From Tabrizicola sp. BL-A-41-H6 (GTDB taxonomy: Bacteria; Pseudomonadota; Alphaproteobacteria; Rhodobacterales; Rhodobacteraceae), in NCBI RefSeq assembly GCF_050632395.1, contig NZ_CP192600.1, forward strand, positions 450,424-514,423: a stretch of DNA of 64,000 nt, given 5' to 3'. Both the position numbers and the translations under genes were made by a program. Position 1 is the stretch's first letter. Every line of letters starts with the position of its first letter. Under the pieces are notes generated by a model. That model made no database searches and was not told where the DNA came from. It saw nothing but the letters and a program-made list of their open reading frames with translations. Positions 3,938 through 40,325 of the stretch are shown piece by piece.

Positions 3938-3965
3938 AAAACCCCGGTCGCAAGACCGGGGTTTT
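3938..3965. terminator. Bidirectional rho-independent terminator between TerC and the DUF1013 gene
   Basis: AAAACCCCGGTC-GCAA-GACCGGGGTTTT hairpin. T-tracts follow it in both reading directions. Confidence 0.75.
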
Positions 3966-3986
3966 GTCGTTTCAGCGCTGCGCGTC

Positions 3987-4742: not shown

Positions 4743-4867
4743 CGGATCTCTCCTTTACAAATCTCTCCCGGGCCGGGAAAACGGCGGCGGGCGCTGGCCC
4801 GCGAGTTCCACGTTTTCAGGGAATTCACCGCCCATATAGGGCCTTCGCCAAAAAAGGGGAAGCGAAA

Positions 4868-5506: not shown

Positions 5507-5735
5507 GAAAAGTCGGCGGGATCGCTGGCTGTGAAATACGACGATGCATGGGGAGCATGACAAGCAAGTTTCGTTCAATACCCGGTGCCGGGACAAAGCT
5601 GGGGACTTCGGCCCGGCGAGAAGTCACATTCTGAAATCCGAATCCCGCCTGACGGAAACTTTACCAAAGGCGCGCTTCGGTTGAAGTGAAGAACGCATCA
5701 AAATCGAACCGAACGGTCAAAATTCCGTGCGCTGC

Positions 5736-6728
5736 CTAGTTTTCGACCTTCAGCACGATCTTGCCCACATGGCCGGGCGCCTCGATCCGCCAATGTGCTG
5801 CCGGAGCATCGTTCAGATCGTATTCGCTGTCGTGCACAACCTTCAGGGCGCCATTGGCCAGCATTGGCCAGACATGCGCTTCCACCTCGGCGGCGATGCG
5901 AGCTTTGGCAAGGTCTGACTGCGGGCGCAGCGTGGACCCGGTGATCGTCAGACGCCGCATCATCACTTCGGCAAAGTTGAGCTCGGCCTTGGCGCCTTGC
6001 AGGAAGGCAATCTGCACCAGCCGCCCGTCATCCGCCAGCGCCTTGATGTTCCGCTCGATATAGCCGCCGCCGACCATGTCGAGAATCAGGTTCGCCCCGC
6101 CTTCGGCCTTCAGGGCGGCGGTGAAATCCTCGCTCCGGTAGTTCAGCGCGACCTCGGCGCCCAGATCGGTGCAGACCTTGCATTTTTCATCCGTTCCGGC
6201 GGTGGCGAATACCCGTGCGCCCAGCGCGCGGGCAATCTGGATCGCCGTGGTGCCGATGCCCGACGTGCCGCCATGCACAAGGAAACGCTCCCCCGCCGTC
6301 AGGCCGCCGCGCATCACCACGTTCGACCAGACGGTGAAACAGGTTTCCGGCAGACAGGCGGCATCGCGCATCGACATGCCTGTCGGCACGGGCAACGCAT
6401 GGGCGGCCGGCGTCGCCGCATACTCGGCATACCCGCCCCCCGGCAGCAGTGCGCACACCTTGTCGCCGATCTGCCAGCGGGTGACGCCCGGCCCGACCTC
6501 CACCACCGTGCCGGAACATTCCAGCCCTGGCAGCGGCGAGGCGCTGGGCGGCGGCGCATAGGCCCCGGCCCGTTGCAGCGCATCAGGCCGGTTCACCCCG
6601 GCATAGGCCACGCGGATGATGATCTGGCCATGCCGCGGCACCGGCACCGGCACGGACACCGGTTTCAGAACATCCGGCCCGCCCGGAGCCGAGATTTCCA
6701 TGGCGAGCATGCTGTGCGACAGGGTCAT
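5736..6728 (-). CDS. NAD(P)H:quinone oxidoreductase (MDR/zeta-crystallin, PIG3-like)
   Basis: ISAPGGPDVLKPV...AGVNRPDALQRAGAY...VHGGTSGIGTTAIQIA. Start set at ATG 6728 (AAAGG upstream, 10 nt after the upstream gene's stop). Confidence 0.87.
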   Translation of the reverse strand: MTLSHSMLAMEISAPGGPDVLKPVSVPVPVPRHGQIIIRVAYAGVNRPDALQRAGAYAPPPSASPLPGLECSGTVVEVGPGVTRWQIGDKVCALLPGGGYAEYAATPAAHALPVPTGMSMRDAACLPETCFTVWSNVVMRGGLTAGERFLVHGGTSGIGTTAIQIARALGARVFATAGTDEKCKVCTDLGAEVALNYRSEDFTAALKAEGGANLILDMVGGGYIERNIKALADDGRLVQIAFLQGAKAELNFAEVMMRRLTITGSTLRPQSDLAKARIAAEVEAHVWPMLANGALKVVHDSEYDLNDAPAAHWRIEAPGHVGKIVLKVEN

Positions 6729-6738
6729 CTTCGGCCTT

Positions 6739-7413
6739 TCAGAACAGGTGGCGACCGGGCAGGTCATCCGGCACTTTTGGCGCACGAACCCTTTCCAGAA
6801 TCTTGAAAGGCCCGTTTTTCAGTGCCTTGCCAAGCGGATTTTCCGCCAGACCTGCCTTGAACTTCTCGAACTGCATCACCTGGTCGATGCGGCGGTACAG
6901 AAAATCCCAGCTGGCCTGATGGTCAAGGCTGCCATCGCCCAGCCAATAGAGCACCGTCGCACCATAAACCGCCGTCAGCGTGCCGCGCTTGGTATACCAG
7001 TTCAGGTCGGTCGAGGTGTCGCCCAGCGCCGTCCAGATCTTGTCGGTCGTGCCCCACAAGGCCCGCGCCCCATCGGCCGCGTGCTGCGGCAGGGCGAACA
7101 GCGTGGTGCCCCGACGCACCAGCTCCTTGTCGGCCAATTCCAGCCTTGTCCGCACCGCCAGCGCGATCCGGTCCCGAAACCGCATCGAAGACAGGTCCAT
7201 CGCTGCCAGCCGTGCCACCATCTCCGCATCGCCGCGCGCGTGGTAGGCCAGCGCCAGATCGACGCCGCCCCGTGGATACAGCGCCCGCGCCAGAGCATCG
7301 GGCACGCCGCAGTCGGCAATCGCCGCGCGGAACGTGGTTTCCGACCAGCCGTCAAACGGCACATGCGCCAGCGCCGCGTCCAGAATCCGGTCCTTTTGGG
7401 TCGTCTCGGTCAT
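6739..7413 (-). CDS. COQ9-family protein (rpsU-divergently transcribed protein)
   Basis: MTETTQKDRILDAALAHVPFDGWS...WYTKRGTLTAVYGATVLYWL. It is divergent from rpsU, as the family name implies. GGAGG lies upstream of ATG 7413. Confidence 0.85.
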   Translation of the reverse strand: MTETTQKDRILDAALAHVPFDGWSETTFRAAIADCGVPDALARALYPRGGVDLALAYHARGDAEMVARLAAMDLSSMRFRDRIALAVRTRLELADKELVRRGTTLFALPQHAADGARALWGTTDKIWTALGDTSTDLNWYTKRGTLTAVYGATVLYWLGDGSLDHQASWDFLYRRIDQVMQFEKFKAGLAENPLGKALKNGPFKILERVRAPKVPDDLPGRHLF

Positions 7414-7521
7414 GTCAGCCTCCGTCCTGCCGCGCGGTGGACAAGCCCACCCTTGTTTGATATAGGCCGCGGGCCTGCACAAGTCAGTGCAACTTTAACC
7501 TAGGAAGGTGGTGACAACCAC

Positions 7522-7728
7522 ATGCAGGTCAGCGTCCGCGATAACAACGTCGAACAGGCTCTCCGTGCCCTGAAGAAAAAACTTCAGCGCGAAGGGGTGT
7601 TTCGGGAAATGAAGCTCAAGCAGCATTTCGAGAAGCCCTCCGTCAAGAAAGCACGCGAACAAGCCGAAGCCGTGCGCCGCGCGAGGAAACTCGCCCGGAA
7701 GAAGCTTCAGCGTGAAGGCGGTCTTTAA
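7522..7728 (+). CDS. rpsU: 30S ribosomal protein S21
   Basis: [45 protein letters not shown]..., unmistakable S21. Confidence 0.97.
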
Positions 7729-7768
7729 GACGTCAGCGACACTGGGGTAGCGATACCCGCCCGATCAA

Positions 7769-7795
7769 CCCCCGTCCTTCAGGCCGGGGGTTTTT
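7769..7795 (+). terminator. Rho-independent terminator after rpsU
   Basis: CCCCCG...CGGGGG stem followed by TTTTT. It overlaps the stop of the convergent aquaporin gene. Confidence 0.7.
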
Positions 7796-8445
7796 CATTT
7801 TGCGGGCCGGAACAGCCAGCCCGCCAGCGCCGCCGCGACCGACGCTCCGGCGATCTGTGCCAGCCAGAAGGCGGGCAGATCGACTGGACGGATGCCAGCG
7901 AACGTCTCGGTAAATGCCCTAGCCAACGACACGGCCGGATTGGCAAAGCTGGTCGATGCGGTGAACCAATAGGCCGCCGCGATATAGGCCGCGACCATCA
8001 GCGCCACATTGGCCCGCGCATGGATCGCGCCCAGAATCGTCAGCACCAGCCCAAAGGTCGCCACGCCTTCGGCGATCCACTGCCCGGTGCCGCTGCGCGG
8101 GGTCGTCGATAGCTGCCAGATCGGCAGATCGAACATCGCGTGCGCCAGCAATGTTCCTGCCACGCCGCCAGTGATCTGGGCTGCAACAAAGCCCAGCGCC
8201 AGAATCGGTGCGACCTCGCGCCGGACGGCAAAAACCAGCGTCACGGCGGGGTTGAAATGCGCGCCCGACACCGGGGCGAAAATGGTGATCAACACCAGCA
8301 GCGCCGCCGCCGTGGCGATGGTGTTGGCCAACAGGGCCAGCGCCACATCCGCCGTCAGCCGGTCGGCCATGATGCCTGACCCGACAACGGCGGTGACCAG
8401 AAGCCCAGTGCCAAGGGCCTCGGCCACAAGGCGGCGTGCGGTCAT
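7795..8445 (-). CDS. MIP-family aquaglyceroporin (AqpS-like arsenite channel)
   Basis: Two NPA boxes (HFNPAVTL, FANPAVSLAR). Start ATG 8445 overlaps the arsC stop as ATGA. The upstream part of the track ORF is out of context. Confidence 0.87.
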   Translation of the reverse strand: MTARRLVAEALGTGLLVTAVVGSGIMADRLTADVALALLANTIATAAALLVLITIFAPVSGAHFNPAVTLVFAVRREVAPILALGFVAAQITGGVAGTLLAHAMFDLPIWQLSTTPRSGTGQWIAEGVATFGLVLTILGAIHARANVALMVAAYIAAAYWFTASTSFANPAVSLARAFTETFAGIRPVDLPAFWLAQIAGASVAAALAGWLFRPAK

Positions 8446-8936
8446 TCGGTGCGGCCGATCTCGGACAGCCGCGCCTTCAGGGTCAGTGCGTCCAGCGTGG
8501 CGATGGGCAGGGCGGCGAACGCCTGGATGCGGCGGTTCAACGCCCGGTAGGTCTCTGCGAATGCCAGCGCCTTTGCCGCGTCGCTGCCCTCGACGGCCGC
8601 AGGGTCTGGCAGACCCCAATGCGCGCTGACCGGTTGCCCCGGCCAGTAGGGGCATTCCTCGGCCGCCGCGCTGTCACAGACGGTGAACACGAAATCCAGC
8701 TTCGGGGCGCCGGGGGCTGCGAACTCGTCCCAGCTTTTCGACCGCGCGAAGCTGGTGTCGAACCCTTCGCGTTGCAACAGCGACAGGGCGAACGGGTTCG
8801 GCGCCCCGGTCGGGCGCGATCCTGCGGAATGGCCGATGAAGCGACCCTTGCCTTCACGGTTCATGATCGCTTCGGCCAGTATCGACCGCGCCGAATTGCC
8901 GGTACACAGGAACAGGACGTGAAAAGGGGCGGTCAT
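8442..8936 (-). CDS. arsC: Arsenate reductase, LMW-PTP (thioredoxin-coupled) type
   Basis: MTAPFHVLFLCTGNSARSILAEA (CX5R loop) and VCDSAAAEECP second cysteine pair. GGAG lies upstream of ATG 8936. Confidence 0.9.
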   Translation of the reverse strand: MTAPFHVLFLCTGNSARSILAEAIMNREGKGRFIGHSAGSRPTGAPNPFALSLLQREGFDTSFARSKSWDEFAAPGAPKLDFVFTVCDSAAAEECPYWPGQPVSAHWGLPDPAAVEGSDAAKALAFAETYRALNRRIQAFAALPIATLDALTLKARLSEIGRTE

Positions 8937-8994
8937 CTGGCATCTCCGGTTTGCCAGCGCCGAATGCCAAGACTTTGTAACAGCCCGGTGACGT

Positions 8995-9453
8995 TCAGAC
9001 CGCAAGCGCCGTGGTTTTCACCACCGTGCGAAGCGCAAAGCTTGACTGCATCTGCCGCACACCGGGCAGTCGGCTCAGGAACTGGCGGTGGATGCGGGCG
9101 AAATCCTCGGTATCCTCGGCCATGATCTTCAGCAGGTAATCCGCCGTCCCCGCCATCAGGTGGCACTCCAGCAGATCCGGCACCCGCGCAACCTCGCGCT
9201 CGAAGGCGTCAAGCAGGTCTTCGGCCTGACTTTGCAGGGTGATTTCCACGAACACCGTGGTCAGCCGCCCCATCTTGCGGGCATCCAGCAGCGCAACATA
9301 GCCTGCGATATACCCCTCCTCCTCCAGTCGCTGCACCCGGCGATGGCAGGCTGATGGCGACAGGTTCACCTGTTCGGACAGTTCGGCATTGGTGATCCGC
9401 CCTTCCTTTTGCAGGACTGTCAGGATGCGGCGGTCGGTTGCGTCAAGATCCAT
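8995..9453 (-). CDS. Lrp/AsnC-family transcriptional regulator, divergent from ald
   Basis: The last 152 aa of the 640-aa track ORF read MDLDATDRRILTVLQKEGRITNAELSEQVNLSPSACHRRVQRLEEEGYI... The rest of that ORF is antisense to ald. Confidence 0.9.
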   Translation of the reverse strand: MDLDATDRRILTVLQKEGRITNAELSEQVNLSPSACHRRVQRLEEEGYIAGYVALLDARKMGRLTTVFVEITLQSQAEDLLDAFEREVARVPDLLECHLMAGTADYLLKIMAEDTEDFARIHRQFLSRLPGVRQMQSSFALRTVVKTTALAV

Positions 9454-9603
9454 GTTCGGTGCAAGTTTCTTCGGCTGGATGCGGAAATATCGGCAGAATC
9501 TACGCCATCCAACCCGACCCGTCACCCAGAATTCAAAGCATTTGCGAAGAAACAGGCAAAGACTGACCGCACAAGGGCCGCTTTGGCCCGCAGGGAGACA
9601 GCA

Positions 9604-10722
9604 ATGAAAATCGGTTGCCCGAAGGAAATCAAGCCGCAGGAATTCCGCGTCGGCATGACCCCGGATGCCGCGCGCGAAGCGGTGGCGCATGGCCATTCCG
9701 TGATGATCGAAACCAACGCCGGCACCGGCGCGGGCTTTTCTGACGCCGATTATCAGGCGGCGGGTGCAAAGATCGTCGGCACCGCCGAAGAGGTCTTCGC
9801 CGCCGCCGACATGATCGTCAAGGTCAAGGAACCGCAGGCTGTAGAGCGCAAGCGCCTGCGCGAGGGGCAGGTCTTGTTCACCTACCTCCACCTTGCCCCC
9901 GACCCGGAGCAGACGAAAGACCTTCTGGCCTCGGGCGTCACCGCCATCGCCTACGAGACGGTGACGGATGACCGTGGCGGCCTGCCGCTTCTGGCGCCGA
10001 TGTCCGAGGTTGCGGGCCGTCTGGCGCCGCAGGTCGGGGCGTGGACGCTGCAAAAAGCCAACGGCGGGCGCGGCGTCCTGCTGGGCGGGGTGCCGGGCGT
10101 GTCGCCGGCTAAGGTGCTGGTCATTGGCGGCGGTGTCGTCGGCACCCACGCGGCCAAGGTTGCGGCCGGGATGGGCGCGGATGTCACCGTGCTTGACCGG
10201 TCGATCAACCGCCTGCGCTATCTGGATGACGTGTTCGGGCGCGACTTCAAGAACGCCTACGCCAGCGCCGGCAACACAATCGCGCTTGCCCGCGAGGCCG
10301 ACCTCATCATTGGTGCGGTGCTGATCCCCGGTGCCGCCGCGCCGAAATTGATCAGCCGCGCGCAACTGAAGGAGCTGAAGCCCGGCGCGGCGTTGGTTGA
10401 CGTCGCCATCGACCAGGGTGGCTGCTTCGAGACGTCGCGCGCCACCACCCATCAGGACCCGATCTATGACGTAGACGGGATCATGCACTACTGCGTCGCC
10501 AACATGCCCGGCGCGGTGGCGCGCACCTCGACGCAAGCCTTGGGCAACGCGACAATGCCCTTCCTGCTGGCGCTGGCCGACAAGGGCTGGAAAAAGGCCT
10601 GCGCCGACGACAGGCACCTGCTGGCAGGCCTGAATACCCACAAGGGCAAGCTGACTTATGCCGCCGTCGGCGCGGCGCTTGGCCTGCCGGTAATCTCGGC
10701 CGCCGACGCGCTGGCGCATTGA
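9604..10722 (+). CDS. ald: Alanine dehydrogenase
   Basis: MKIGCPKEIKPQEFRVGMTPDAAREAV...VLVIGGGVVGTHAAKVAAGMGADVTVLD. GGGAGA lies upstream of ATG 9604. Confidence 0.95.
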   Translation: MKIGCPKEIKPQEFRVGMTPDAAREAVAHGHSVMIETNAGTGAGFSDADYQAAGAKIVGTAEEVFAAADMIVKVKEPQAVERKRLREGQVLFTYLHLAPDPEQTKDLLASGVTAIAYETVTDDRGGLPLLAPMSEVAGRLAPQVGAWTLQKANGGRGVLLGGVPGVSPAKVLVIGGGVVGTHAAKVAAGMGADVTVLDRSINRLRYLDDVFGRDFKNAYASAGNTIALAREADLIIGAVLIPGAAAPKLISRAQLKELKPGAALVDVAIDQGGCFETSRATTHQDPIYDVDGIMHYCVANMPGAVARTSTQALGNATMPFLLALADKGWKKACADDRHLLAGLNTHKGKLTYAAVGAALGLPVISAADALAH

Positions 10723-10733
10723 TGTGAACGCAA

Positions 10734-10760
10734 AAGGCCCCCGATGCTGTCGGGGGCCTT
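10734..10760 (-). terminator. Hairpin terminator shared by convergent ald and mscL (T-tract only in the mscL direction)
   Basis: AAGGCCCCCGA-TGCTG-TCGGGGGCCTT. On the minus strand it is followed by TTTTG. Confidence 0.65.
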
Positions 10761-10778
10761 GGCAACGGCGTGTCGCGC

Positions 10779-11198
10779 TTACTTCTTCAGCTGGACGAGG
10801 ATTTCTTTCAGGAGGTCCACTTCGGTCGGCCCGGCAGCAGCAGCCTCGGCTGCTTCCTTGCGTGCGGTCGCCTCTTTCAGCTTGTTCACCGCCTTGACCA
10901 GCAGGAACACCACCCATGCGATGATCAGGAAGTTGATCACCGCCGTGATGAACGCGCCGTAGGCAAAGACTGGCGCGCCAGCCTCTTTCGCCACGGCCAG
11001 CGAGGCCGGGTTGGTGCCGGAAAGGTCGATGAACAGGTTGGAGAAATCAACCCCGCCGGTCAAAAGACCGATCAGCGGATTGATCAGGTCGCCGACGAGC
11101 GAGTTGACGATGGCCGTAAAGGCCGCACCGATGATGATACCGACCGCAAGGTCGACCACATTCCCTTTGGCGATGAACGCCTTGAATTCATTAAGCAT
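10779..11198 (-). CDS. mscL: Large-conductance mechanosensitive channel
   Basis: [44 protein letters not shown], canonical MscL. Confidence 0.95.
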
Positions 11199-11347
11199 TG
11201 CACGGTTCCCTTCGTTCTCTGCCTGGACGGCGGATGTTGTGTGTTGCGTAGCTGCACATAGCCGTGGCGACTATTGCACAGCAGAGTTCGCTGTCGCACG
11301 GGGAATTTTCCCGTATCGTGCCGCAAATCCCACTGGAGGAATGCAAT

Positions 11348-29115: not shown

Positions 29116-30129
29116 ATGGGCGCGCTTGACCTGAAGGCTGTCACCAAAAGCTTCGGCGCCACCGAGGTCATCAAGGGCATCGACCTTGAGGTGCGGGAGG
29201 GCGAGTTTTGCGTCTTCGTCGGCCCCTCGGGCTGCGGCAAGTCCACCCTGCTTCGCATCATCGCGGGTCTGGAGGATGCGACCTCGGGCGACATCCTGCT
29301 TGATGGCAAGCGCGTCAACGACGTGGCCCCCGCCAAGCGCGAACTGGCGATGGTGTTCCAAAGCTACGCGCTTTACCCGCACCTGTCGGTCCGCGACAAC
29401 ATGGGCCTCGCCTTGAAACAGGCGGGCAAACCCCGGGCCGAGATCACGGCGATGACCGACCGCGCCGCCAAGATGCTGTCGCTCGACGCGCTTCTTGACC
29501 GTCGCCCGGCGGAACTCAGCGGCGGCCAGCGTCAGCGTGTCGCAATCGGCCGCGCCATCGTGCGCACGCCGAAACTCTTTCTGTTCGACGAACCCCTCTC
29601 CAACCTCGACGCCGCCCTGCGCGTCGCCACCCGGATCGAGATCGCCCGCCTGCACCGCGACCTGAAGGCCACGATGATCTACGTCACCCACGACCAGGTC
29701 GAAGCGATGACCCTTGCCGACCGCATCGTTGTCTTGCGCGCGGGCAAGGTGGAGCAGGTCGGCACCCCGATGGAGCTTTACAACAACCCCGCCAACACCT
29801 TCGTCGCGGGCTTCATCGGCAGCCCGCAGATGAACTTCCTTGACGCCGCCGCCCTGGGTCACCCGCCCGGCCAGATCGGCGCGCGGCCCGAACACATCGG
29901 CTTGTCGCGGCAAACCGGCGACCTGTCCGGTCAGGTCAGCCATGTCGAAAAGCTGGGTGGCGAAACGCTGGTCTATGTGCGCAGCGACGTGCATGGCCTG
30001 CTTACCGTGCGGCTGTTCGGTGAACACGATTACGCCGTGTCAGAGACGGTTTTCCTGACCCTGCCCACCGATCGGCTGTTCCATTTCGCCCCTGACGGTC
30101 GCCGCCGCCAACCAACAGCCGTGGTCTAG
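29116..30129 (+). CDS. ABC transporter ATP-binding protein (MalK/UgpC-like)
   Basis: Walker [10 protein letters not shown], signature [14 protein letters not shown], Walker [13 protein letters not shown], plus a C-terminal regulatory domain. Confidence 0.93.
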
Positions 30130-30998
30130 CCGCGCGCGGCGTTCCACGCGGCCAGAACCTGCCCCGCCGCATCGCCCGCCACCACGCCCAGCAACACCGC
30201 GCCCTCCGCCTGCAGGCAAAGGATGCTGTGGCCGCTTACCAGATCGTTGCCCAGAACGGTGCAGACGGGCTCGCCTGCGGCCTGTGTCAGCCGGTCAAGT
30301 TGCTGCATCAGCGCGTCGGCCTCGTCGTTCAGGAAATCCTCAAGCGGCGCGACCATTTCCTCGGGGCCGAACCGGCCCTGTTCCTCGTCGCCCGATCGGA
30401 TCAGCCAGGCGGCCAACCCGTCGCCCATCTGCGCCACGAAGGCTTGAAGGAACCCGACCGTTTCCGGTCCGGCCTCCGCTTCGGGTTCAACGCCATCCCC
30501 CACGCTTTCCACGGCCTCAGCCTCAGCCTCGGCCTCAACCGAGTCGGCACCTTCGTCGTTCAGATCAATTCCCAGATGGTCCGCAAGGCGCGCCACCGGC
30601 AGCCCCACGCTCAGCCCCTCGCTGCGGCCCAGCGGGGCGGCGATCACCCGCAGGGTCGACCCACTTGCCGTCAGCGCGCTGAAAACCCCTGCCAGATCCT
30701 CGCGGTTGGCATCGTCCAGCGCCGGCACGCCAAGGCAGGCCTCCGCGCCGGCAATCCCGCTTGCCGCCGTCACCCGCAGCACCCTGCGCCCCGCCACGTC
30801 CAGCGACAGCGTCGCCCCCGCATCGGTCGAAAACACCAGGGATCGGCCCAGCAGCGTCTCGTTGATCTCGCGCAGCAGCGCAGCCAATGGCGAGGCCATC
30901 CCCGGCCCACCGATCACGCGCAACGCGCCCGGCGCGAACGTCGCCGGGGCCTGCAGCGCCCGAAGTCGGGCCATTACTGGGGTCGTCTTGTCTTTCAA
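30126..30998 (-). CDS. Hypothetical two-domain protein with acidic EAEAEAEA linker, last gene of the FHA/PP2C/GTPase operon; C-terminal half Roadblock/LC7-like by pattern
   Basis: 290-aa ORF with native codon bias. No catalytic motif recognised. Start uncertain (TTG 30998 or ATG 30974). Its stop overlaps the convergent ABC ATPase stop (CTAG). Confidence 0.55.
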
Positions 30999-31028
30999 GT
31001 GCCTTGCCGAACCATTCGCCCAAAGGCG

Positions 31029-31409
31029 TTACGCATTCCCGCTGATGTCGTCCAGCGTGCTGCGAAGTGTCGCGACAAATGCGCCAAGGTCAATGGAGTG
31101 ATCGCATATACAGCAGATCGCGTCGTCAGTCTCGGCCTGCGCACGCAGAAACAGCTTCACGCCCGACCCGTCCACGACCAACGCCCCGTGCGCCGTGCCG
31201 AACGCCTGTTCGGCCAGCGTCGACATCGGTTCGCCAAAACTGGCCGAGGCATCGGCGCACAACTGGTCCAGATGTTCCTGCGTCATGTCCACCGACCCGG
31301 CGCTGCTCAGCACCATGCGCGAGGCAAGGTCGGCATAGGCGATCACCCGCGCCTGCGGATGCGCCGTCGCCACGGATTGCAATGCGTCCTGAACCCCCAC
31401 GGGCATCAT
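31029..31409 (-). CDS. Small (126 aa) hypothetical protein, Roadblock/LC7/MglB-like by size and alternating helix/strand pattern
   Basis: ALQSVATAHPQARVIAYADLASRMVLSSAG...HGALVVDGSGVKLFLRAQAETDDAICCICDHSIDLGAFVATLRSTLDDI. It lies directly downstream of the GTPase genes. Fold assignment is inference only. Confidence 0.55.
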   Translation of the reverse strand: MMPVGVQDALQSVATAHPQARVIAYADLASRMVLSSAGSVDMTQEHLDQLCADASASFGEPMSTLAEQAFGTAHGALVVDGSGVKLFLRAQAETDDAICCICDHSIDLGAFVATLRSTLDDISGNA

Positions 31410-31432
31410 CCTTTAGAATCTGGGCCGCAGCC

Positions 31433-32416
31433 TCAGCCCTTCGATTGCGTCAACGGCGAAGCGGGGCCAGCGGCACCACCGCCATCCTGCGGCGGGGCGC
31501 TGGTACGTTCGGCAAATGGCACCACATTGCCGCCAAGCGCAACCGGCCGTGCCGCATCGGGGCGGGGCTGGCGTGCGCCGGTGGTAGCCACGCGGCGTGG
31601 CATGACCCGCTCGCCCAAAGGCACCGTCTGCCCTGTTTTCACCAGACGAAGCCGGTCGAAATGCGTCGACACAAGGCTCGATTCACCGGCCGATACTGGC
31701 TCGTCGCCGTCTTGCACCTGTTCTTCGTCGGTCAGCGTCGCGTCGCTGTCGGCCAGCCGATTGACCAGATCATACAATGCGTTGGTAAAGGCATAGCCCC
31801 CGCTTGCGACCCATTTCTGCTGGTCATCCCCCGCTGCCATCGCCTGCGTCAGCGAAATCGGGAAGAACTCGGCAAACAGCCCGCGCGTTTCGGTGGCCAC
31901 TCGCTTCAACACGCGCAGCCGGTCAGCCTCGCTGATGATTTTGTCAAAGCGCGTCACCAGCAACATGCTGTGGGCGCGCAATTCCTCGGGGAAGGTCGCC
32001 CAGACGCCGGCTTCCGATTGCCGCCACGCCTGCGTCGCATGGGTGCACCACAGGACGCCATCCGCTAGATGCGCCATCCGTTCCCACACTTCGGGCGCCA
32101 TGCTCGGGTCGGAAATCCCGGGCATGTCGATCAGGTCGCAATATTTCAACATCTCGCTTTTCAGGTAGATGCGCACATGCTCCGTCCCGTCCAGGGACAC
32201 GCTGCCAAGGTCGGCCACGTCCAAAGGTTCGCGCTCGCCATCCAGACGTTGCACATAGGCATCGCCCGCCCCGTAACTTAGCCAGACCGGCGGCAATTGC
32301 GTCGCCGTGACCTTCTCCAACAGCGGACGCGACCCCAGAAGCACGTTGCACAGCGTGCTCTTGCCGGAACTGAATTCGCCCATGATCGCAAGGCGCGGTT
32401 TGCGGTGGTTTGCCAT
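31433..32416 (-). CDS. Dynamin-N-type GTPase (327 aa) with Pro/Gly-rich C-terminal tail
   Basis: G1 GEFSSGKSTLCNVLLG, G3 DMPG, G4 TRFD. Confidence 0.8.
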   Translation of the reverse strand: MANHRKPRLAIMGEFSSGKSTLCNVLLGSRPLLEKVTATQLPPVWLSYGAGDAYVQRLDGEREPLDVADLGSVSLDGTEHVRIYLKSEMLKYCDLIDMPGISDPSMAPEVWERMAHLADGVLWCTHATQAWRQSEAGVWATFPEELRAHSMLLVTRFDKIISEADRLRVLKRVATETRGLFAEFFPISLTQAMAAGDDQQKWVASGGYAFTNALYDLVNRLADSDATLTDEEQVQDGDEPVSAGESSLVSTHFDRLRLVKTGQTVPLGERVMPRRVATTGARQPRPDAARPVALGGNVVPFAERTSAPPQDGGGAAGPASPLTQSKG

Positions 32417-32437
32417 GGCTACTGCTCTTTTCTTCCG

Positions 32438-34510
32438 TCAGTCTGCATAAACGCTCAGCTCGTCCATCACCGTCGCCAAGCCGGCTTGACGGTCTTCCCA
32501 CGCGTTGACGCCGAAAAGCTCCTTCATTTCGGCAATCGACACGTCGGAACTGGCCAGCGCGCTGGTCAGCAGCTCCCGCTGTTCGTGCAGGAAATCCCTC
32601 AGCGTCTTCTGCGTGCGTTCACGGAACAGGCCGATCTGTATGGTCTTGAGATCATTGATGATCGGGTCGGTCTCTGCACGGATCAGCTTGTAGAAATCCT
32701 CGGCAAAGGCCTGATAGCCGCGCCGCCGCTGCCACCAGCCCTTCCACCAGCTGACCTGCAGGTCCAGCGCGATGGTCTGGCCAAGGTTGATCGGCGGCGG
32801 GATGTAGGTCACCACCGGCACCTCGATCTTGAACCCCTCGACCGTGATCGAGAAGGTGCGCCCGTAAAGATCCGCCACCAGCCGCGCGGCATCGCCGTTC
32901 ACCTCGGCGGCGATGGCGTGCATCTTCTTCAGCAGCACCTGATAGCTTGAACTCAGCAGCATCCGCAGCCCCAGCGGGCTGTAGTGCCACATCGCGTCTT
33001 CGCCGTTGTTCTGCAGATGCTCGATCAGCGATGACGTCGCACGCTCCAGAAACCGCTCGTAGGATTGGTCGATCCGGTTGGTGAAATCGGCGCAGGCCAG
33101 ATTGGTGCGCTGCATCAGCCGCTCGGTGCAGTCGGTCTCGATCCGGGTCAGTTCGGCGTCCAGCGCCTCCGGCGTCATGCTGCGGGTCAGCGCGCCTTCC
33201 TGCTCCAGGATGCGCACCTGATCCACCACATCCAGACTCTGCGCCAGGTTCAGCGCCTGCCGAGCCGATTTCTGCAACGTCTCCAGCACCGGGCCTTCGA
33301 ACATCCGCTGCGCCAGCGCCTCGATCAGCGCCGGCACGCCCGACGCCGCCCAGACCAGATGGTCCGCCGTCCACGTATCCACGCGGTCGGCAAAGGCAGA
33401 CCGCGTCCAGTTGATCGCGGCGTTGGTGCTGTCATCCGGCATCTCGTCGATCGTGCCCGACAGCACGGCATTGGCCCACTGCGCGCTGCCGAAGATGATG
33501 TCGATGTTCGCCGGCGCGTTGTTCTTGCCCAGCGTCTCAAGGATCGACCGGTGAATTTCCGGCACTTGCGTCGCCGGGTCGGACAATTCGTCGATCCGGT
33601 TGACGAAGATGATGATCTCTCGCGACGCTCGGTGCGCAATCATGCGGATCAGCGCCATATCCATCGTGGTCAGCGCCTGATGCGCCGACAGCACGACAAT
33701 GCAGGTCCGGCTGTCGCGCACCGCGTTGATGGTGATCTGCTCGCGCATCATGAAGGTGTCGTTCACACCGGGCGTGTCGCGCACGCAAAGCGACGTCGGA
33801 ATATCCGCCCGCTCGATGTAAAGATCCGCCGATTTGGTAATGTCGACAAAGCGGCCCTGATCGTCGGCCTCGATCTCCTCGTCGCCGACGCAGACATAGC
33901 GTTTCAGAAGCGCGTCATCGACCTTGCCATAGCGGTGCTCGGTGCCCAAGAGCATCTCGAACTTGCGGCCCAGCCGGGCGCGCGCCTTCTCGCGCATCGC
34001 CACAACCTGCAAGCGCAGCTTCTCCAGCTCGTCATCCGCCCCGGCCCGCGCCGCCAACTGGCCGATTCGGCCGCCGTTGCTGATCAGCCGGTCCCATTCC
34101 GCCCCGTCAAAGAACTTGAACCTCGCCTTCACGTTCGGGTCCGGGCTGGGCGTGTTGATGTGCAGCGACGTGACCACCGAAGTCCACGGGTTCACGTCCG
34201 TCGGCAACAGCCCCGGCGCGCCGATCATCGCGTTGACCAGCGACGTCTTGCCCGCCTTGATCTGCCCGATCACCGTGACCGAAGGCTCGATTTCCCGCGT
34301 TTGTTGTTGAATTCGCGCAAGTTTTTTCGCCGTCTCCGGGTCGGCAAGGCTCATGAAATCGCCCAGAACGTCCTCAAAGTCCTGAACCGCCTCGGCGATC
34401 CGCGCCAGTCCGGGAAAGGTTCGCCGTATCGGCGAGTCCGCAGCGGGCGCGACCTGCGCGACCTGTTCTGCGTTCACTGCGTCCATCTTCACGACTGCGC
34501 CTCGTCCCAT
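32438..34510 (-). CDS. Bacterial dynamin-like protein (690 aa)
   Basis: G1 GQIKAGKTSLVNAMIG, G3 DTPG, G4 NRID, followed by about 400 aa of predicted helical stalk and a Trp/Arg-rich patch SWWKGWWQRRRG. GAGGG lies 6 nt upstream of ATG 34510. Confidence 0.85.
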   Translation of the reverse strand: MGRGAVVKMDAVNAEQVAQVAPAADSPIRRTFPGLARIAEAVQDFEDVLGDFMSLADPETAKKLARIQQQTREIEPSVTVIGQIKAGKTSLVNAMIGAPGLLPTDVNPWTSVVTSLHINTPSPDPNVKARFKFFDGAEWDRLISNGGRIGQLAARAGADDELEKLRLQVVAMREKARARLGRKFEMLLGTEHRYGKVDDALLKRYVCVGDEEIEADDQGRFVDITKSADLYIERADIPTSLCVRDTPGVNDTFMMREQITINAVRDSRTCIVVLSAHQALTTMDMALIRMIAHRASREIIIFVNRIDELSDPATQVPEIHRSILETLGKNNAPANIDIIFGSAQWANAVLSGTIDEMPDDSTNAAINWTRSAFADRVDTWTADHLVWAASGVPALIEALAQRMFEGPVLETLQKSARQALNLAQSLDVVDQVRILEQEGALTRSMTPEALDAELTRIETDCTERLMQRTNLACADFTNRIDQSYERFLERATSSLIEHLQNNGEDAMWHYSPLGLRMLLSSSYQVLLKKMHAIAAEVNGDAARLVADLYGRTFSITVEGFKIEVPVVTYIPPPINLGQTIALDLQVSWWKGWWQRRRGYQAFAEDFYKLIRAETDPIINDLKTIQIGLFRERTQKTLRDFLHEQRELLTSALASSDVSIAEMKELFGVNAWEDRQAGLATVMDELSVYAD

Positions 34511-34632
34511 TCTTACCCTCGAATTTCTGCTAACAGTGCCACTGGATACAACTACCGGTCAGACAAGCCTTATGTTGGGATAGTGGTGCCAATTGGGCAG
34601 AGTTTAGACGAATCTTCGGAGATCAATCCGCC

Positions 34633-36183
34633 CTAGGCGGCCATCAATGTTTCCAGATCGCGCCGAATCTGCAGAAGCATGGTGATCGCGTCGTCTGCGG
34701 GTGCCGGCCCCTTTTCCAGTTTCATCAGCAGCACCAGATCCTGAATTTCGCCAAGGTCGGTTGCTATTCGGCGGACCGGGCGGGCAGCGGCCTTTCCCAG
34801 GATCGCCGCCACGTCGTCGGTTGTGGCATGGCTCAGGTCAAGGATCTCCTCCACCGGCACGGCCTTCATCCCGGCAACGCTGTCCACCATCCGCGCCGCA
34901 CTGTCCGCAATCACCGCTACCGCCGCTTCGACGATGGCCCGGTCCGCTGGTGACAGCATTTCGCGCATCGTCGCGGCGGGCGGCAACGGGCGCGCTGTCA
35001 CACGGGTCCGCGGGCGCATCGCCTCGCTGTCGCCCTTCGGCACCAGAATAAGCGGCGTCTGCCTTGGCGGGCGCGGCACTTGACGCATTTCGGGCCGCGC
35101 TTCGGCGGCTTCTGTCGGGGATGGGTCAACCGCCGCGATCCTGTCCAGCGTGGAACGCGGCAGGCTTGGCGGCACATAGACCGGCGGTGAAAAGCTGGGC
35201 GGTGCAGACAGCACGCGGCGCAGCAGCGGGCGCGTTTCGGCTCGCACGGGTGCGGCAGGCGTCGGCGGCGCGATCTCGGGCAGCGCGTCCGGCACGGCAA
35301 CCGGCCCGGCAGGCAGCACTGGCACAGGGTCGGCCACGCGCCGCTGTGTGCGCTGCGGCGGCCGGGCATGGCGCAGCAACAGCGCCTCGGCCGTGGCCGC
35401 ATCGGCCTTGTGCGCCATTTCGACGCGCGACTTGATCGCGGAAATCACTGCCGAGGCACCGCTGTCGCGAAACTGCTCGCGGTCGACCGTGCCATCCGGC
35501 AACAGCGCACGCCCCGCCTCCAGCACCGAAATCGGCAACACGCGGCGGAACTCCTGCCCCGCCCGCGCCTCGATCCGTTTTACCACGCCCGCAACCGCGT
35601 CTTGCGAACCGATCAGATCGGTCTTTGTCACCAGAAGAAAACCGTTGTCCTTGGTCTGGTCGGGCAGGGCTTCCCACAGCATCTGCTCGCGCGGCAGGAA
35701 GGCCGTGCTGCACCAGACCACGATATCCGCCCGTTTGCCCGCCCAGGCCATTGCGCGGCGCTGGTCCTGCTCCGACGGGCCGGCCGCCACTTCCAGAAGG
35801 CTGATCACCGACAGCGCCGGAAGATCGCATTCCAGCGTCACCAGTGCGGGCTGCAATTCCACCGTGTCGGCCAGATCAGTGCCGTCGATCACCTCGCTTG
35901 ACCCGTCGGCCAGCGTGCAGATCATCCGCGCCTCACCGCCGCGCTGCACCAGAACCGTCGGCAGGGCCAGATCTTCCGGCACCACCGTCTCTCCGGCCAG
36001 CAAGTTCAGCACCGCCGTCTTGCCCGCGCCTTGCATCCCAAGGATCGCCACCCGCGCCGGGCGTTCCAGCCGTTCAATCAGCCGCTCGGCCGCTTCGGCC
36101 GGCCCTCCAGCAGGCAAATGGCCCCGGTCAAGCGCACGGCCAAGGCGTTCTATGATCGACAGCGTGGGTTCAAGGCTCGACAT
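34633..36183 (-). CDS. Divergent P-loop GTPase (516 aa), paralogous to the 327-aa GTPase, with Pro-rich linker and unknown C-terminal domain
   Basis: G1 GMQGAGKTAVLN and G4 TKTD. The block ADIVVWCSTA...LLVTKTD aligns with ADGVLWCTHA...LLVTRFD of the 327-aa protein. The G3 position reads DLPA/EVAAG rather than DxPG. Confidence 0.7.
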   Translation of the reverse strand: MSSLEPTLSIIERLGRALDRGHLPAGGPAEAAERLIERLERPARVAILGMQGAGKTAVLNLLAGETVVPEDLALPTVLVQRGGEARMICTLADGSSEVIDGTDLADTVELQPALVTLECDLPALSVISLLEVAAGPSEQDQRRAMAWAGKRADIVVWCSTAFLPREQMLWEALPDQTKDNGFLLVTKTDLIGSQDAVAGVVKRIEARAGQEFRRVLPISVLEAGRALLPDGTVDREQFRDSGASAVISAIKSRVEMAHKADAATAEALLLRHARPPQRTQRRVADPVPVLPAGPVAVPDALPEIAPPTPAAPVRAETRPLLRRVLSAPPSFSPPVYVPPSLPRSTLDRIAAVDPSPTEAAEARPEMRQVPRPPRQTPLILVPKGDSEAMRPRTRVTARPLPPAATMREMLSPADRAIVEAAVAVIADSAARMVDSVAGMKAVPVEEILDLSHATTDDVAAILGKAAARPVRRIATDLGEIQDLVLLMKLEKGPAPADDAITMLLQIRRDLETLMAA

Positions 36184-36189
36184 GTAGGC

Positions 36190-37158
36190 TCACTTCCCCG
36201 CCGCAATGCGCTTTGAGCTGGCGTCAGCGTCCTGCCCCGCCTCGATTTCAGGCTTTGCCGGTTGCAGCGGGACGACCGAAGGCTCCGCCATCACCGTCGT
36301 CAGCGACCGTGGCCGGCTAATCGCCTGCGACACCGTCTTCACCCGGGCGCTTCGCGCACTGACCGATGCGTCATTCACCTTGATCACGCAGAACGACACG
36401 TTGTCCTGATCCGGGTCATCCAGCTTGCGGATCTCGTCCAGCAGAACTTCCGCGATCTCGCTGCTGCGTTTTCTCCGCGTCCGCCCCAGCAGCTTTTCGA
36501 TCTGGTCGTTGGTCAGGAACTGCAACCCGTCCGATGCGCAGATCACGATGTCGCCCACCTTCAACTCCATCGGCTTTTCCGGGCAGTCGATCTGCGGAAT
36601 CCGCATCCCCATCAACACCGAGGTCAAGCAGTTGCGGTCCGGATGGTCGGCCCCCACCTTCGGGTCCATCAGTCCGGATTTCACCATGAAATCAATCTGC
36701 GGCGCCATCGAGTGGTCTTCGTTGATCTGCGTCAGCACCCCCGCGCGGTACAAAAACAGCGGCGAATCCCCGACCGAGATCCAGTAAAGCCGGTTTTCCA
36801 GCATCACCGGCACCACCAGCGTCGCCCCCATTCCGGCGGTCTCCGGATGCGTGCGCGCATGTTGCCGCAAGCGGTCGTTGGCGTGGTCGGTGATGTTGCG
36901 CAAGATTTCCGGCGCCCGCGCCTCGAAGGCGTCGGTGTCGGCGTACTGGAACTTCAACTCGCTATAAACTTCCGTCAGCACGATCTTCGACGCCACGTCG
37001 CCCGCCGCATGCCCGCCCATACCGTCGGCCAGCACCACGAACCCCGCATCCGCCCCCACAAGAAAATCGCTGGTGATCGCATCTTCCTGATAGTCCCGCG
37101 CGCCCTGGCTTATCGCCGTGGCCACGTCATAGCGAGGCTCACGCGATCGCCATATCAT
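36190..37158 (-). CDS. PP2C-family Ser/Thr protein phosphatase
   Basis: QEDA...VLADGMGGHAAGDVAS...GATLV...VGDSPLFL...ICASDGL...DNVSFCVIKV. ATG 37158 is preceded by GGGGGAG. It overlaps the FHA gene's end by 20 nt. Confidence 0.9.
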   Translation of the reverse strand: MIWRSREPRYDVATAISQGARDYQEDAITSDFLVGADAGFVVLADGMGGHAAGDVASKIVLTEVYSELKFQYADTDAFEARAPEILRNITDHANDRLRQHARTHPETAGMGATLVVPVMLENRLYWISVGDSPLFLYRAGVLTQINEDHSMAPQIDFMVKSGLMDPKVGADHPDRNCLTSVLMGMRIPQIDCPEKPMELKVGDIVICASDGLQFLTNDQIEKLLGRTRRKRSSEIAEVLLDEIRKLDDPDQDNVSFCVIKVNDASVSARSARVKTVSQAISRPRSLTTVMAEPSVVPLQPAKPEIEAGQDADASSKRIAAGK

Positions 37159-38026
37159 TCGAATCTCCCCCACCCTGCTGCCGCGACCAGTTGAACTCGG
37201 GCGTGCACAGCACCTTCAGCAGCAAAGTGGTTTCCCCGATCTGGATTTCGTCGCCATCCTTCAGCGGCTCGGTGGTCAAAAGCGGGCGTCCGTTCAGTCG
37301 CACAAGGTTCGACTTGCCGCCGTGGCCGATGAAGAACTGATGCTGCGACGCGTCATAGGCGATCGCCGCGTGGTTGCTGCGCGATACCGTCATGTCGCCG
37401 AAATCCAGCCGCACGGTCTGGTCAACGCCGCGCCCGACCATCGACAGGCCCTGCTTCAGCGGGAAACTGGCGCCCCGGCCAGCGCCCGCCTTTACCACCA
37501 GCCAGCCGGTCGGGAACATCACGACCTCGGGCCCCTCGGCAGGCTCCAGCTCCTCCTCCGGCTTCGCTTGCGCCTCGAACAACGGCACGACCGAGGTTTC
37601 CTCCGGCTCGAAACCCAGCATCCGCGTCTTGGTCCGGTTGGCGCGGCCGCGCGGCGCGGGGTCCGCCACAGGCACCGCCGCTTCCGGCTCCGCCGACGTC
37701 GCCCGGCCCCTGCGCTGGCGGGCAGACCGCTCCGGTTCCTCGCCCGGCGCGTCCTCTTCGATGTCCCATATGTTCACCACCGGCGCGCCGCCGTCCTTGA
37801 CGCGCGTCGGGGTCACCGTCTTGGTCAGCACCTCGCTTCGCGCGCCGACCGCATCCGACAGCTTGGGGAAACGGTGCGAATTGACCGTCGCCGTGGCGCC
37901 TGCCCGCAACGCCTCCATCGCCTGCCGCGCGGCCTCCGCCTGCTCGGCCTCGGTTCCGGAAAACGGCGAGGGCGAGGTTGGCCGGCTTTTCGATTTGCGA
38001 CGCAACATCTTTTCAAGAAGGTTCAT
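37139..38026 (-). CDS. FHA-domain protein (disordered N-terminal half, C-terminal FHA)
   Basis: GWLVVKAGAGRGASFPL...MVGRG...VSRSNHAAI...NLVRLNG...GDEIQIGETTLLL. AGGAG lies upstream of ATG 38026. Confidence 0.88.
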   Translation of the reverse strand: MNLLEKMLRRKSKSRPTSPSPFSGTEAEQAEAARQAMEALRAGATATVNSHRFPKLSDAVGARSEVLTKTVTPTRVKDGGAPVVNIWDIEEDAPGEEPERSARQRRGRATSAEPEAAVPVADPAPRGRANRTKTRMLGFEPEETSVVPLFEAQAKPEEELEPAEGPEVVMFPTGWLVVKAGAGRGASFPLKQGLSMVGRGVDQTVRLDFGDMTVSRSNHAAIAYDASQHQFFIGHGGKSNLVRLNGRPLLTTEPLKDGDEIQIGETTLLLKVLCTPEFNWSRQQGGGDSNDMAIA

Positions 38027-39563: not shown

Positions 39564-40325
39564 ATGTTCGCTGAAAGCGAGCTTTCGGACGACAAGTTCC
39601 TCTGCGGTCGCCTGCGCCTCTTGCAACCCGTCAAAGGCTACCGCGCCGCAACCGACCCCGTTCTTCTCGCCGCCGCCTGCCCCGCGACTTCGGGCCAGTC
39701 GGTGCTTGATCTCGGCTGCGGGGCAGGGGCCGCGTCACTGTGCCTCGGCCACCGCGTTCCCGGCCTCATCCTCACCGGCCTCGAACTGCAACCCGCCTAC
39801 GCTGACCTCGCCCGCCGGAACGCCGCCCGCAACGGCATCGCGATGGATGTGGTCGAGGGCGATCTTGCCAACCTTCCCGCCACCCTCCGCCGCGATTTCG
39901 ACCACGTCATCGCCAACCCGCCCTACTATCCGCCCGGCGGCACCCCCTCGCCGGTCAAATCCCGCGCCACCGCGATGCAAGTTGACGAAACCCCGCTGTC
40001 CCTCTGGGTCGAGGCCGCGTCCCGCCGCCTGCGCCCCGGTGGCTGGCTCACGCTGATCTCCGGCGCCGATACCCTGCCGGACCTTCTCTCGGCGCTTGGC
40101 CCAAAACTTGGCTCCGCCGCAGTGCTGCCGCTGGCCCCGCGCGAGGGCAAACCCGCCCTCCGCATCCTTCTTCACGCCCGCAAGGGCGGCCGCGCTCGGT
40201 TCCGCCTGCTTGCCCCCTTCGTCATCCACCAAGGCACCGCCCACGACGGCGACCGCGAAAGCTATACGCCCGACGCCAACGCCGTCCTGCGTGACGGTGC
40301 CGACCTCTTGGCGGCGTTTCGCTGA
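39564..40325 (+). CDS. SAM-dependent N6-adenine methyltransferase, TrmN6/YfiC-like (NPPY)
   Basis: VLDLGCGAGAASL SAM motif and ANPPYY catalytic motif. Confidence 0.85.
   Translation: MFAESELSDDKFLCGRLRLLQPVKGYRAATDPVLLAAACPATSGQSVLDLGCGAGAASLCLGHRVPGLILTGLELQPAYADLARRNAARNGIAMDVVEGDLANLPATLRRDFDHVIANPPYYPPGGTPSPVKSRATAMQVDETPLSLWVEAASRRLRPGGWLTLISGADTLPDLLSALGPKLGSAAVLPLAPREGKPALRILLHARKGGRARFRLLAPFVIHQGTAHDGDRESYTPDANAVLRDGADLLAAFR

Follow-up and report, generated by a model that had tools for sequence, protein, structure and literature searches.

A conserved Rhodobacterales gene block joins phosphothreonine-signalling proteins, dynamin-family GTPases and a predicted Roadblock-fold protein

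By following up a cluster of seven genes in a 64,000-nucleotide (nt) stretch of Tabrizicola sp. BL-A-41-H6 (contig NZ_CP192600.1, positions 450,424 to 514,423; hereafter the window), we identified a block of genes that recurs in the Rhodobacterales. It encodes an FHA protein, a PP2C-type Ser/Thr phosphatase, three dynamin-family G-domain proteins, a small protein with a predicted Roadblock/LC7 fold and one unclassified protein, and in most lineages it also includes a Hanks-type Ser/Thr kinase. We propose, with moderate confidence, that these genes constitute one conserved functional module, in which a phosphothreonine switch would control a multi-subunit dynamin-like membrane machine equipped with a Roadblock regulator. 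The genes, which we name g1 to g7 in 5' to 3' coding order (lengths in amino acids, aa), are as follows.

37139–38026, minus strand: g1, FHA protein (295 aa)
36190–37173 (GTG start, 327 aa) or 36190–37158 (ATG start), minus strand: g2, PP2C-type Ser/Thr phosphatase
34633–36183, minus strand: g3, dynamin-family G-domain protein (516 aa)
32438–34510, minus strand: g4, full-length bacterial dynamin-like protein (690 aa)
31433–32416, minus strand: g5, short dynamin-family GTPase (327 aa)
31029–31409, minus strand: g6, Roadblock/LC7-fold protein, as predicted by modelling (126 aa)
30126–30998, minus strand: g7, unclassified protein (290 aa)

The locus had been singled out by an original prediction made from the letters of the sequence, and its description of seven minus-strand reading frames packed head-to-tail is reproduced by these coordinates. 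Genes g1 and g2 overlap by 20 nt (35 nt if g2 starts at the GTG), the gaps that follow measure 6, 122, 21, 23 and 30 nt, and 259 nt of non-coding DNA lie 5' of g1, where about 260 had been given. All the sequence motifs that it quoted are present.

Conservation, rearrangement and the upstream kinase

A genome scan with g4 returned 497 related stretches, of which the best 80 loci were compared. They fall into two groups: one from Tabrizicola, Rhodobacter and Paracoccaceae with 73–99% g4 identity, and a more distant one from Yoonia, Loktanella, Cognatiyoonia, Aestuariibius and Roseobacter sp. CCS2 with 50–53%. Genes g1 to g7 are syntenic in both, and an upstream IspB gene and a downstream ABC ATPase gene are conserved in the Tabrizicola group only. 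By scoring those loci that had enough flanking sequence with profile hidden Markov models (HMMs), we found g1 to g7 in all 21 complete loci of the Tabrizicola group, with no kinase at the locus, and in all 23 of the distant group (mostly Yoonia/Loktanella), with a Hanks Ser/Thr kinase gene directly upstream on the same strand. The co-conservation of neighbouring genes that the original prediction had proposed to look for was thus borne out, the seven-gene order being kept in 44 of 44 complete loci of the two groups. Its further suggestion of a lineage-resident module also agrees with the recurrence of the IspB and ABC flanks throughout the Tabrizicola group.

The upstream kinase is about 750 aa long (Pkinase, 5.9e-33), with one transmembrane helix (343–367) and a long extracytoplasmic part, which together suggest sensing outside the cytoplasm. 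The eight-gene form that includes it is found in two intermediate lineages (59% and 56% g4 identity), each in different flanks. At greater distance, we scanned metagenomes with a three-sequence alignment of very distant g6 relatives, about 20–25% identical to the g6 of the window. This yielded 14 loci, of which the three complete ones read kinase-g1-g2-g3-g4-g5-g6-g7 and the partial ones are consistent with that order. A cluster look-up assigned the g4 of the three complete metagenome loci to Roseovarius and one partial locus to Seohaeicola. As far as sampled, the module is specific to the Rhodobacterales, in which its flanks represent at least six different genomic contexts.

Rearranged versions are carried by plasmids: a tblastn search located the module on 12 plasmids of Leisingera and on 5 megaplasmids of Ruegeria. 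On plasmid NZ_CP083558 of Leisingera sp. S132 it forms two convergent units, g4-g5-g6-g7 and kinase-SBP-SBP-FHA-PP2C-g3 (SBP, substrate-binding protein). The split falls exactly at the junction of g3 and g4, and g3 stays with the kinase, FHA and PP2C genes; genetically, g3 belongs to the signalling side. On plasmid pTHAF33_a of Ruegeria sp. THAF33 the genes lie on one strand in the order hypothetical protein-DLP-DLP-Roadblock-like-g7-like-DLP-DLP(g3/g5-like)-kinase-FHA-PP2C-SBP-SBP (DLP, dynamin-like protein). One Leisingera strain holds two copies of the module. The genes have remained linked through these rearrangements, and we describe the module as two tandem sub-units, one for signalling (kinase, g1, g2 and g3) and one for the effector (g4, g5, g6 and g7).

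In both the Leisingera and the Ruegeria plasmids, two genes annotated 'transporter substrate-binding domain' stand beside the kinase, FHA and PP2C genes. This neighbourhood may mean that the kinase receives its input from a periplasmic ligand-binding protein, and it recalls the GlnH-GlnX-PknG-GarA pathway. Another plasmid, NZ_CP023549 of Rhodobacter sp. CZR27, carries at 817–11267 four consecutive dynamin-family genes, behind which come genes for a sensor histidine kinase, a DUF6781 protein and a kinase of the AarF/UbiB family. That cluster lacks FHA, PP2C and Roadblock genes, and we regard it as a related but different arrangement.

The original prediction had described the system as one without a kinase. 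This holds for the locus in the window and not for the system, as the kinase is in the cluster everywhere except in the Tabrizicola clade. Because the distant group, the intermediate lineages, the Roseovarius-type loci and the Leisingera and Ruegeria plasmids all carry it, the kinase-less form of the window is a derived state of one clade, and the eight-gene form is probably ancestral. The kinase-less clade still keeps the conserved threonine of g1 (T134), the FHA residues for phosphothreonine binding and the PP2C catalytic motifs, which implies that a kinase acts there in trans.

The genes of the window module are closely spaced except between g3 and g4, where the one sizeable gap coincides with the break point between the two Leisingera transcription units. 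Its size is conserved, with 122 nt in the window, about 133 nt in Tabrizicola-group loci generally and about 160 nt in those of the Yoonia group. Alignment of 10 Tabrizicola-group loci delimited one further feature within it.

34567–34627, minus strand: conserved non-coding block in the gap between g3 and g4

Conservation of this block is above that of the adjacent coding sequence. It contains a near-palindrome, CCCAATTGGC, at 34588–34597, and a GANTC site, GANTC being the CcrM methylation motif in alphaproteobacterial cell-cycle control. In most Tabrizicola-group loci a CCCAATT[G/C]GG element (CCCAATTGG) is located about 100 nt 5' of the g4 start. The Yoonia-group gap has a conserved block of its own, which shares a TTTCCA...TTATG core with the Tabrizicola block. 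The block is a candidate internal promoter or operator. An RNA element was considered in its place and rejected in favour of a DNA-level element, since Rfam gave no match within the gap and the consensus fold (-4 kcal/mol) showed no covariation.

Encoded proteins and their motifs

Family or fold could be assigned for six of the seven proteins. For g1 and g2 the FHA and PP2C calls made at the outset were upheld by Pfam scores above the cut-offs. The FHA match of g1 scores 32.3 bits against a cut-off of 20.7 (E 1.3e-7), and its nearest solved structures are those of GarA and OdhI (1e-6). The protein is laid out as a disordered N-terminal half, a basic threonine motif, the FHA domain (about residues 172–270) and a conserved C-terminal tail. 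In an alignment of 20 sequences G198 R199, S215 R216, H219, N240 and N245 are invariant, conserving the GR, SRxxH and NG residues of the family; we take these positions to be the phosphothreonine-binding set of the FHA domain. The threonine motif reads RTKT134RMLGFE (residues 131–140, nt 37607–37636). T134 is invariant in the same 20 sequences, the consensus is R-x-x-R-T-K-T134-R-[LMVF]-[IL]-G-F, and position +3 from T134 is always I or L. Many FHA domains favour Ile or Leu at the +3 spacing after phosphothreonine. The protein falls short of the more specific families: it scores 37.8 bits against a cut-off of 200 for the OdhI/GarA equivalog model (NCBIfam NF041660) and 13.3 against 120 for the FHA model of the type VI secretion system (T6SS; TIGR03354, VI_FHA). 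Its C-terminus, D[VM]AIA-COOH (the window sequence ends in DMAIA; 37139–37160), is invariant within a variable region and is preceded by conserved C274, F278 and W280.

The phosphatase g2 matches Pfam PP2C_2 at 34.1 bits (cut-off 24, E 2.5e-8), and the motifs RDYQEDA, DGMGGH, GDSPL, SDGL and DPDQDN, which include the metal-binding Asp motifs of the PP2C (PPM) family, reach 90% conservation or more across 21 sequences. Its best matches in the PDB are entries named 'phosphorylated protein phosphatase' (such as 5f1m and 6ihl; 5e-22), followed by PstP, Stp1 (2pk0) and PppA. The NCBIfam Stp1 model is matched at 4e-40, with 137.7 bits, below the equivalog cut-off of 230.

Three dynamin-type GTPases had been predicted, and for g4 and g5 this stands on the Dynamin_N profile. 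Gene g4 scores 42.3 bits against a cut-off of 27 (E 1.1e-10), and its best PDB matches are Campylobacter DLP1 (5owv_A, 5e-7) and then Nostoc BDLP (2j68). Its G1 (GQIKAGKTS at 82), G3 (DTPG at 245) and G4 (NRID at 304) motifs are intact and conserved. It is the most conserved gene of the module, with 78–85% identity where the others have 45–75%. About 380 aa extend past the G domain and contain a Trp-rich basic motif, TIALDLQVSWWKGWWQRRRGY (residues 579–599, nt 32714–32776; consensus TIALDLQxSWWKGWWQRR[RK]GY). This motif is invariant or nearly so across the Yoonia group and on the Leisingera plasmid, and the Ruegeria copy retains its tryptophans among surrounding substitutions (TWWRRWWQRRKGF). 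Nostoc BDLP, which is 693 aa long, has its membrane paddle in a comparable place.

Gene g5 scores 37.2 bits with Dynamin_N (E 3.8e-9), has Campylobacter DLP2 as its best PDB match (5owv_C, 8e-6) and likewise keeps intact, conserved G1 (GEFSSGKST at 13), G3 (DMPG at 97) and G4 (TRFD at 155) motifs in a G domain of residues 1–225. Behind the G domain follows a disordered tail with an invariant PRRV (residues 273–276, nt 31589–31600); this element and the C-terminal tail of g1 look like docking motifs. In Roseobacter sp. CCS2 the g4 and g5 genes overlap by 4 nt.

The third GTPase, g3, is the degenerate member of the trio. Its Dynamin_N score of 16.9 bits is below the cut-off, and it was placed in the family by profile comparison. 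Because its N-terminal profile matches that of g5 (hhalign 99.7%, E 6e-26, 207 columns) and its best PDB match is again Campylobacter DLP2 (5owv_C, 6e-9), it belongs to the dynamin-family G domains as a paralogue of g5. When 20 orthologues are aligned, two conserved domains stand out, one of about 270 aa at the N-terminus and a helical one of about 110 aa at the C-terminus, with a hypervariable linker rich in Pro and Glu between them. The window protein has G1 (GMQGAGKT at 49) and G4 (TKTD at 186), which across orthologues are kept as GxxxxGK[ST] and TKxD. The DxxG of switch II is replaced by an invariant LLEV at 129, and g3 may for this reason bind nucleotide yet hydrolyse it poorly. Neither g3 nor g5 has a stalk-length conserved region. 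The third of the dynamin-type GTPases in the original prediction, g3, is a degenerate paralogue with a G domain only. Its total length varies from 436 to 938 aa across loci owing to the linker, which in the window (about 34960–35370, minus strand) is Pro/Glu/Ala-rich, disordered and extremely variable in length. Similar acidic or Pro-rich low-complexity stretches occur in g1, in the tails of g2 and g5, in a linker of g7 and in the extracytoplasmic part of the kinase.

For g6, no match was found in Pfam, NCBIfam, PADLOC or the PDB sequences, and neither g6 nor its CCS2 orthologue matches any Pfam family, Robl_LC7 included, at E <= 0.1. A profile search collected 489 homologues, and an AlphaFold2 model was built from an alignment of 128 of them. 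It has a predicted local distance difference test score (pLDDT) of 82.5, a predicted template modelling score (pTM) of 0.74 and an alpha-beta-beta-alpha-beta-beta-beta-alpha topology. A first model, from an 8-sequence alignment, had a pLDDT of 46.9 and was discarded. When the model was compared with the PDB using Foldseek, the top 50 matches listed were all Roadblock-fold proteins or domains (template modelling (TM) scores 0.64–0.80, E about 1e-6 to 1e-4), with the Streptomyces Roadblock structure 3KYE at the top; among those listed are MglB, LAMTOR/MP1-p14, the Rag C-terminal domain and Streptomyces and Asgard Roadblock proteins. At the level of the predicted structure, g6 is thus confirmed as a Roadblock/LC7 fold that lacks a sequence-level family. 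Its own family comprises 551 representatives at 50% clustering (E <= 1e-3). Within the Tabrizicola and Yoonia groups, four cysteines (C51, C99, C100 and C102; LC...CCxC) vary little or not at all, and they could be a clade-specific redox or metal feature. A metal site of C51 and CCxC as a feature of the whole family was dropped, since the residues are conserved in the closer clades only.

Gene g7 always directly follows g6, and an HMM of g7 detects it in all complete loci. Both halves of its product are conserved and are connected by a variable, acidic linker. The protein has no match in NCBIfam, PADLOC or the PDB sequences; 15 homologues gave none in Pfam at E <= 10. That g7 might be a tandem Roadblock protein was considered and is unsupported at the sequence level, as hhalign comparisons of the whole protein and of each half with g6 gave probabilities below 1%. 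Of the two Roadblock-like partners originally suggested, g6 therefore stands, through its modelled fold; for g7, whose sequence resembles neither g6 nor any Pfam family or PDB sequence, the suggestion is unsupported. A metagenomic protein of 433 aa, P0351, joins a g6-like part (8–124) to a g7-like part (150–407; hhalign 98%, E 1e-13), and the existence of such a single-polypeptide fusion suggests that g6 and g7 work together.

No transmembrane helix was predicted in any of the seven proteins, which fits a peripheral dynamin-like membrane machine.

Proposed mechanism and alternative readings

We propose the following scheme. The kinase would phosphorylate T134 of g1, or sites on g3 or g5, and the mark would be read by the FHA domain, either within g1 itself, which would then be switched off as in GarA, or between partners; g2 would erase it. 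Dynamin-family GTPases are activated by dimerisation of their G domains. The phosphorylation state could decide whether the regulatory G domains of g3 and g5 pair with g4, and this pairing would control the assembly of g4 on the cytoplasmic membrane via its Trp-rich loop. Once assembled, g4 would spend GTP on membrane remodelling, be it fusion, fission or repair. The putative part of g6, probably with g7, is that of a Roadblock platform, or of a regulator resembling a GTPase-activating protein (GAP) or guanine nucleotide exchange factor (GEF), for the G domains of the module; it is modelled on MglB for MglA and on Ragulator for the Rag GTPases.

Several points weigh against a single switch-controlled machine of this kind. 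In the window, a tblastn search of all 64 kb with the CCS2 kinase gave chance matches only. The conserved gap of 122–160 nt between g3 and g4, with its own sequence block, may mean that the genes are read as two transcripts and not as one operon. The fusion P0351 is a single case, from a 2588-nt Logan contig, and may have arisen artefactually through a frameshift where the two genes overlap by 4 nt. In g4, the WWKGWW loop is put forward as a candidate membrane paddle by its position and composition only, in comparison with BDLP. More generally, all of the evidence is computational, and the protein contacts, the phospho-site, the membrane activity and the physiological role are those that we infer. 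For the role, our best guess, held loosely, is signal- or stress-triggered membrane remodelling or repair, preferred because of the receptor kinase and its solute-binding-protein neighbours.

The original prediction had also allowed for anti-phage defence of the Eleos type. In such a system the kinase, FHA and PP2C proteins would sense infection and the dynamins would seal or protect the membrane or abort the infection. A tandem dynamin pair protects Bacillus against jumbo phages, with DynA delaying lysis (10.1101/2022.05.11.491447). The several unrelated contexts of the module, its carriage on plasmids and the two copies in one Leisingera strain are typical of accessory functions, and PADLOC reported partial matches of g4 to LeoA (1.5e-9) and of g5 to LeoBC (6.5e-7). 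These matches, however, span positions 24–82 of 559 and 80–167 of 601 of the respective models, that is the P-loop region and about 10% of each, and no PADLOC model matches g1, g2, g3, g6 or g7. Eleos adjoins known defence systems in about 60% of cases (10.1101/2022.05.11.491447), whereas the flanks here are metabolic, both in the window, whose only flanking PADLOC match is a generic methyltransferase domain, and in four further contexts. The PADLOC check thus found neither a full-length LeoA or LeoBC nor a defence island, and the IMG/VR viral contigs contained no relatives of g5. Gene order and neighbours are moreover stable over the whole clade, unlike those of fast-turnover defence islands, and we consider a defence function unlikely. 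Vertical inheritance and fixed neighbours in the Tabrizicola clade would also suit a housekeeping role in division, envelope growth or vesicle formation, similar to that of Streptomyces DynA/DynB and with growth-linked phosphorylation as by FhaA/PstP/PknB. The composition native to the genome, the strong purifying selection on g4 (78–85% identity) and g2 (about 74%) and the conserved GANTC in the gap between g3 and g4 are in keeping with it. Set against these are the lack of division or cell-wall genes near the module in any context examined, its plasmid-borne and, in one Leisingera strain, duplicated state, and its lineage-specific flanks, which argue for an accessory rather than a core role. 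A housekeeping module is in our estimate distinctly unlikely.

A quite separate question is whether the two halves have a common function at all, or are independent neighbours, an FHA/PP2C(/kinase) cassette and a dynamin/Roadblock cassette held in synteny. Their separation by the conserved gap of 122–160 nt with its own sequence block, their occurrence as separate convergent transcription units in Leisingera and the Rhodobacter plasmid with four dynamin genes and a histidine kinase in the absence of FHA and PP2C all speak for independence. Yet the halves are adjacent in every complete locus examined, in at least six contexts and three gene orders, and chance synteny would not outlast the rearrangements in Leisingera and Ruegeria. 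In addition g3 goes with the signalling half although its paralogue g5 is a gene of the dynamin half, and we judge independence to be very unlikely. We give the least credence, and hardly any, to a polarity or motility switch of the MglA/MglB kind, with g6 as a GAP for g3 and g5 and the dynamin-like g4 as the effector. It would account for the match of g6 to MglB structures (TM about 0.7) and for g3 and g5 being G-domain-only proteins. The G domains of the module are, however, of the dynamin family and not of the Ras/MglA type, which makes such a switch improbable; g6 has no sequence similarity to MglB, and motility or pilus genes are not consistent neighbours, PilJ-domain genes being found in one context only.

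The phosphothreonine-controlled dynamin machine that we favour has counterparts for its parts in known systems. Campylobacter jejuni DLP1/DLP2 (5OWV) similarly has a long and a second dynamin gene side by side, g4 being closest among solved structures to DLP1 and both g5 and g3 to DLP2. Unlike DLP2, however, g5 and g3 lack a stalk of that type and have disordered or unrelated C-terminal parts; the module has three dynamin-family proteins, and Campylobacter has no kinase, FHA, PP2C, Roadblock or g7 partner. LeoABC/Eleos shares tandem dynamin genes, one of which can be a G-domain fragment (LeoB), whereas the module has five or six further conserved genes and lies outside a defence island; Eleos contains no phospho-signalling or Roadblock component (10.1101/2022.05.11.491447).

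On the signalling side, g1 resembles the GarA/OdhI switch of Mycobacterium and Corynebacterium in having a disordered arm with a conserved threonine before the FHA domain, but it is roughly double the length, carries a conserved tail at its C-terminus and has dynamin-like GTPases as partners in place of TCA-cycle enzymes. The T6SS pathways of PpkA/Fha1 or TagH/PppA likewise use a membrane Hanks kinase, an FHA adaptor and a PP2C eraser to control assembly of a large machine; in contrast, no T6SS genes occur at any module locus. With MglA/MglB and Ragulator/Rag, g6 has in common its predicted fold (TM 0.64–0.80) and its position directly after GTPase genes. Sequence similarity is lacking and the GTPases of the module are dynamin-family rather than Ras-like or Rag proteins; regulation by g6 is suggested by analogy. 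The Streptomyces conservon CvnA-D is also an operon of a sensor kinase, a Roadblock/LC7 protein and a GTPase. A conservon encodes a histidine kinase, a DUF742 protein and a small MglA-like GTPase, and by Pfam none of these three is present in the module.

The components are therefore familiar and their assembly is undescribed, none of the compared systems combining the parts, and no module protein reaches equivalog level for OdhI, Stp1, TagH, LeoA or LeoBC. In agreement with the expectation that no described system has this gene combination, full-text literature searches found no paper in which bacterial dynamins are connected to FHA, PP2C or Roadblock proteins, and none that names this cluster. 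In the literature searched we also found no description, in any organism, of a Roadblock protein paired with a dynamin-family large GTPase. The source databases label the genes "dynamin family protein", "FHA domain-containing protein" or "hypothetical protein". We know of no dedicated signalling input to the known bacterial dynamins (BDLP, DynA, DLP1/2, LeoABC, IniA and DynAB). It is possible, and we put this forward tentatively, that the module is the first recognised regulated bacterial dynamin system, in which a receptor kinase, a GarA-like FHA protein and a PP2C phosphatase gate a three-GTPase machine with g6 and g7 as GAP, GEF or platform.

The function and control of bacterial dynamin-like proteins are still largely open, and in this module a dynamin pair is tied by gene linkage to a complete set of writer, reader and eraser of phosphothreonine and to a predicted Roadblock protein, in an abundant and culturable order. 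The module also adds a prokaryotic Roadblock-fold protein, as modelled, beside large GTPases, which bears on the association of Roadblock and longin domains with membrane-traffic GTPases. Experimental handles are offered by the candidate phospho-site T134 of g1, the candidate paddle WWKGWW of g4, the putative pseudo-GTPase g3 and the natural variants with and without the kinase. If the scheme is correct, the Rhodobacterales would be a tractable model for how an external signal switches a dynamin-like remodeller on and off.

Flanking sequence and minor observations

The distal end of the module meets a convergent gene for an ABC ATPase (29116–30129, plus strand; Pfam ABC_tran and TOBE_2), which overlaps the end of g7 by 4 nt. 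Other neighbours in the window are genes for sugar transport, a polyprenyl synthase, a thiolase, a short-chain dehydrogenase/reductase and an EAL protein. Because the G+C content of the module (0.625–0.664) falls within that of the window (0.60–0.70), its composition is like that of its flanks, as had been stated at the outset.

A scan for σ70 promoters and terminators gave none beyond shuffled expectation, and no tRNA genes were found in the 64 kb. The flanking PADLOC match mentioned above is a small methyltransferase gene at 39564–40325 (plus strand; Pfam MTS), which matches mad2 at 3e-19 over the methyltransferase domain only and probably encodes a generic housekeeping enzyme rather than a defence protein. 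Positions 2788–2847 (plus strand) match the terC RNA motif (RF03067) at 56.4 bits against a gathering score of 39.9, the sole above-threshold Rfam match in the window.

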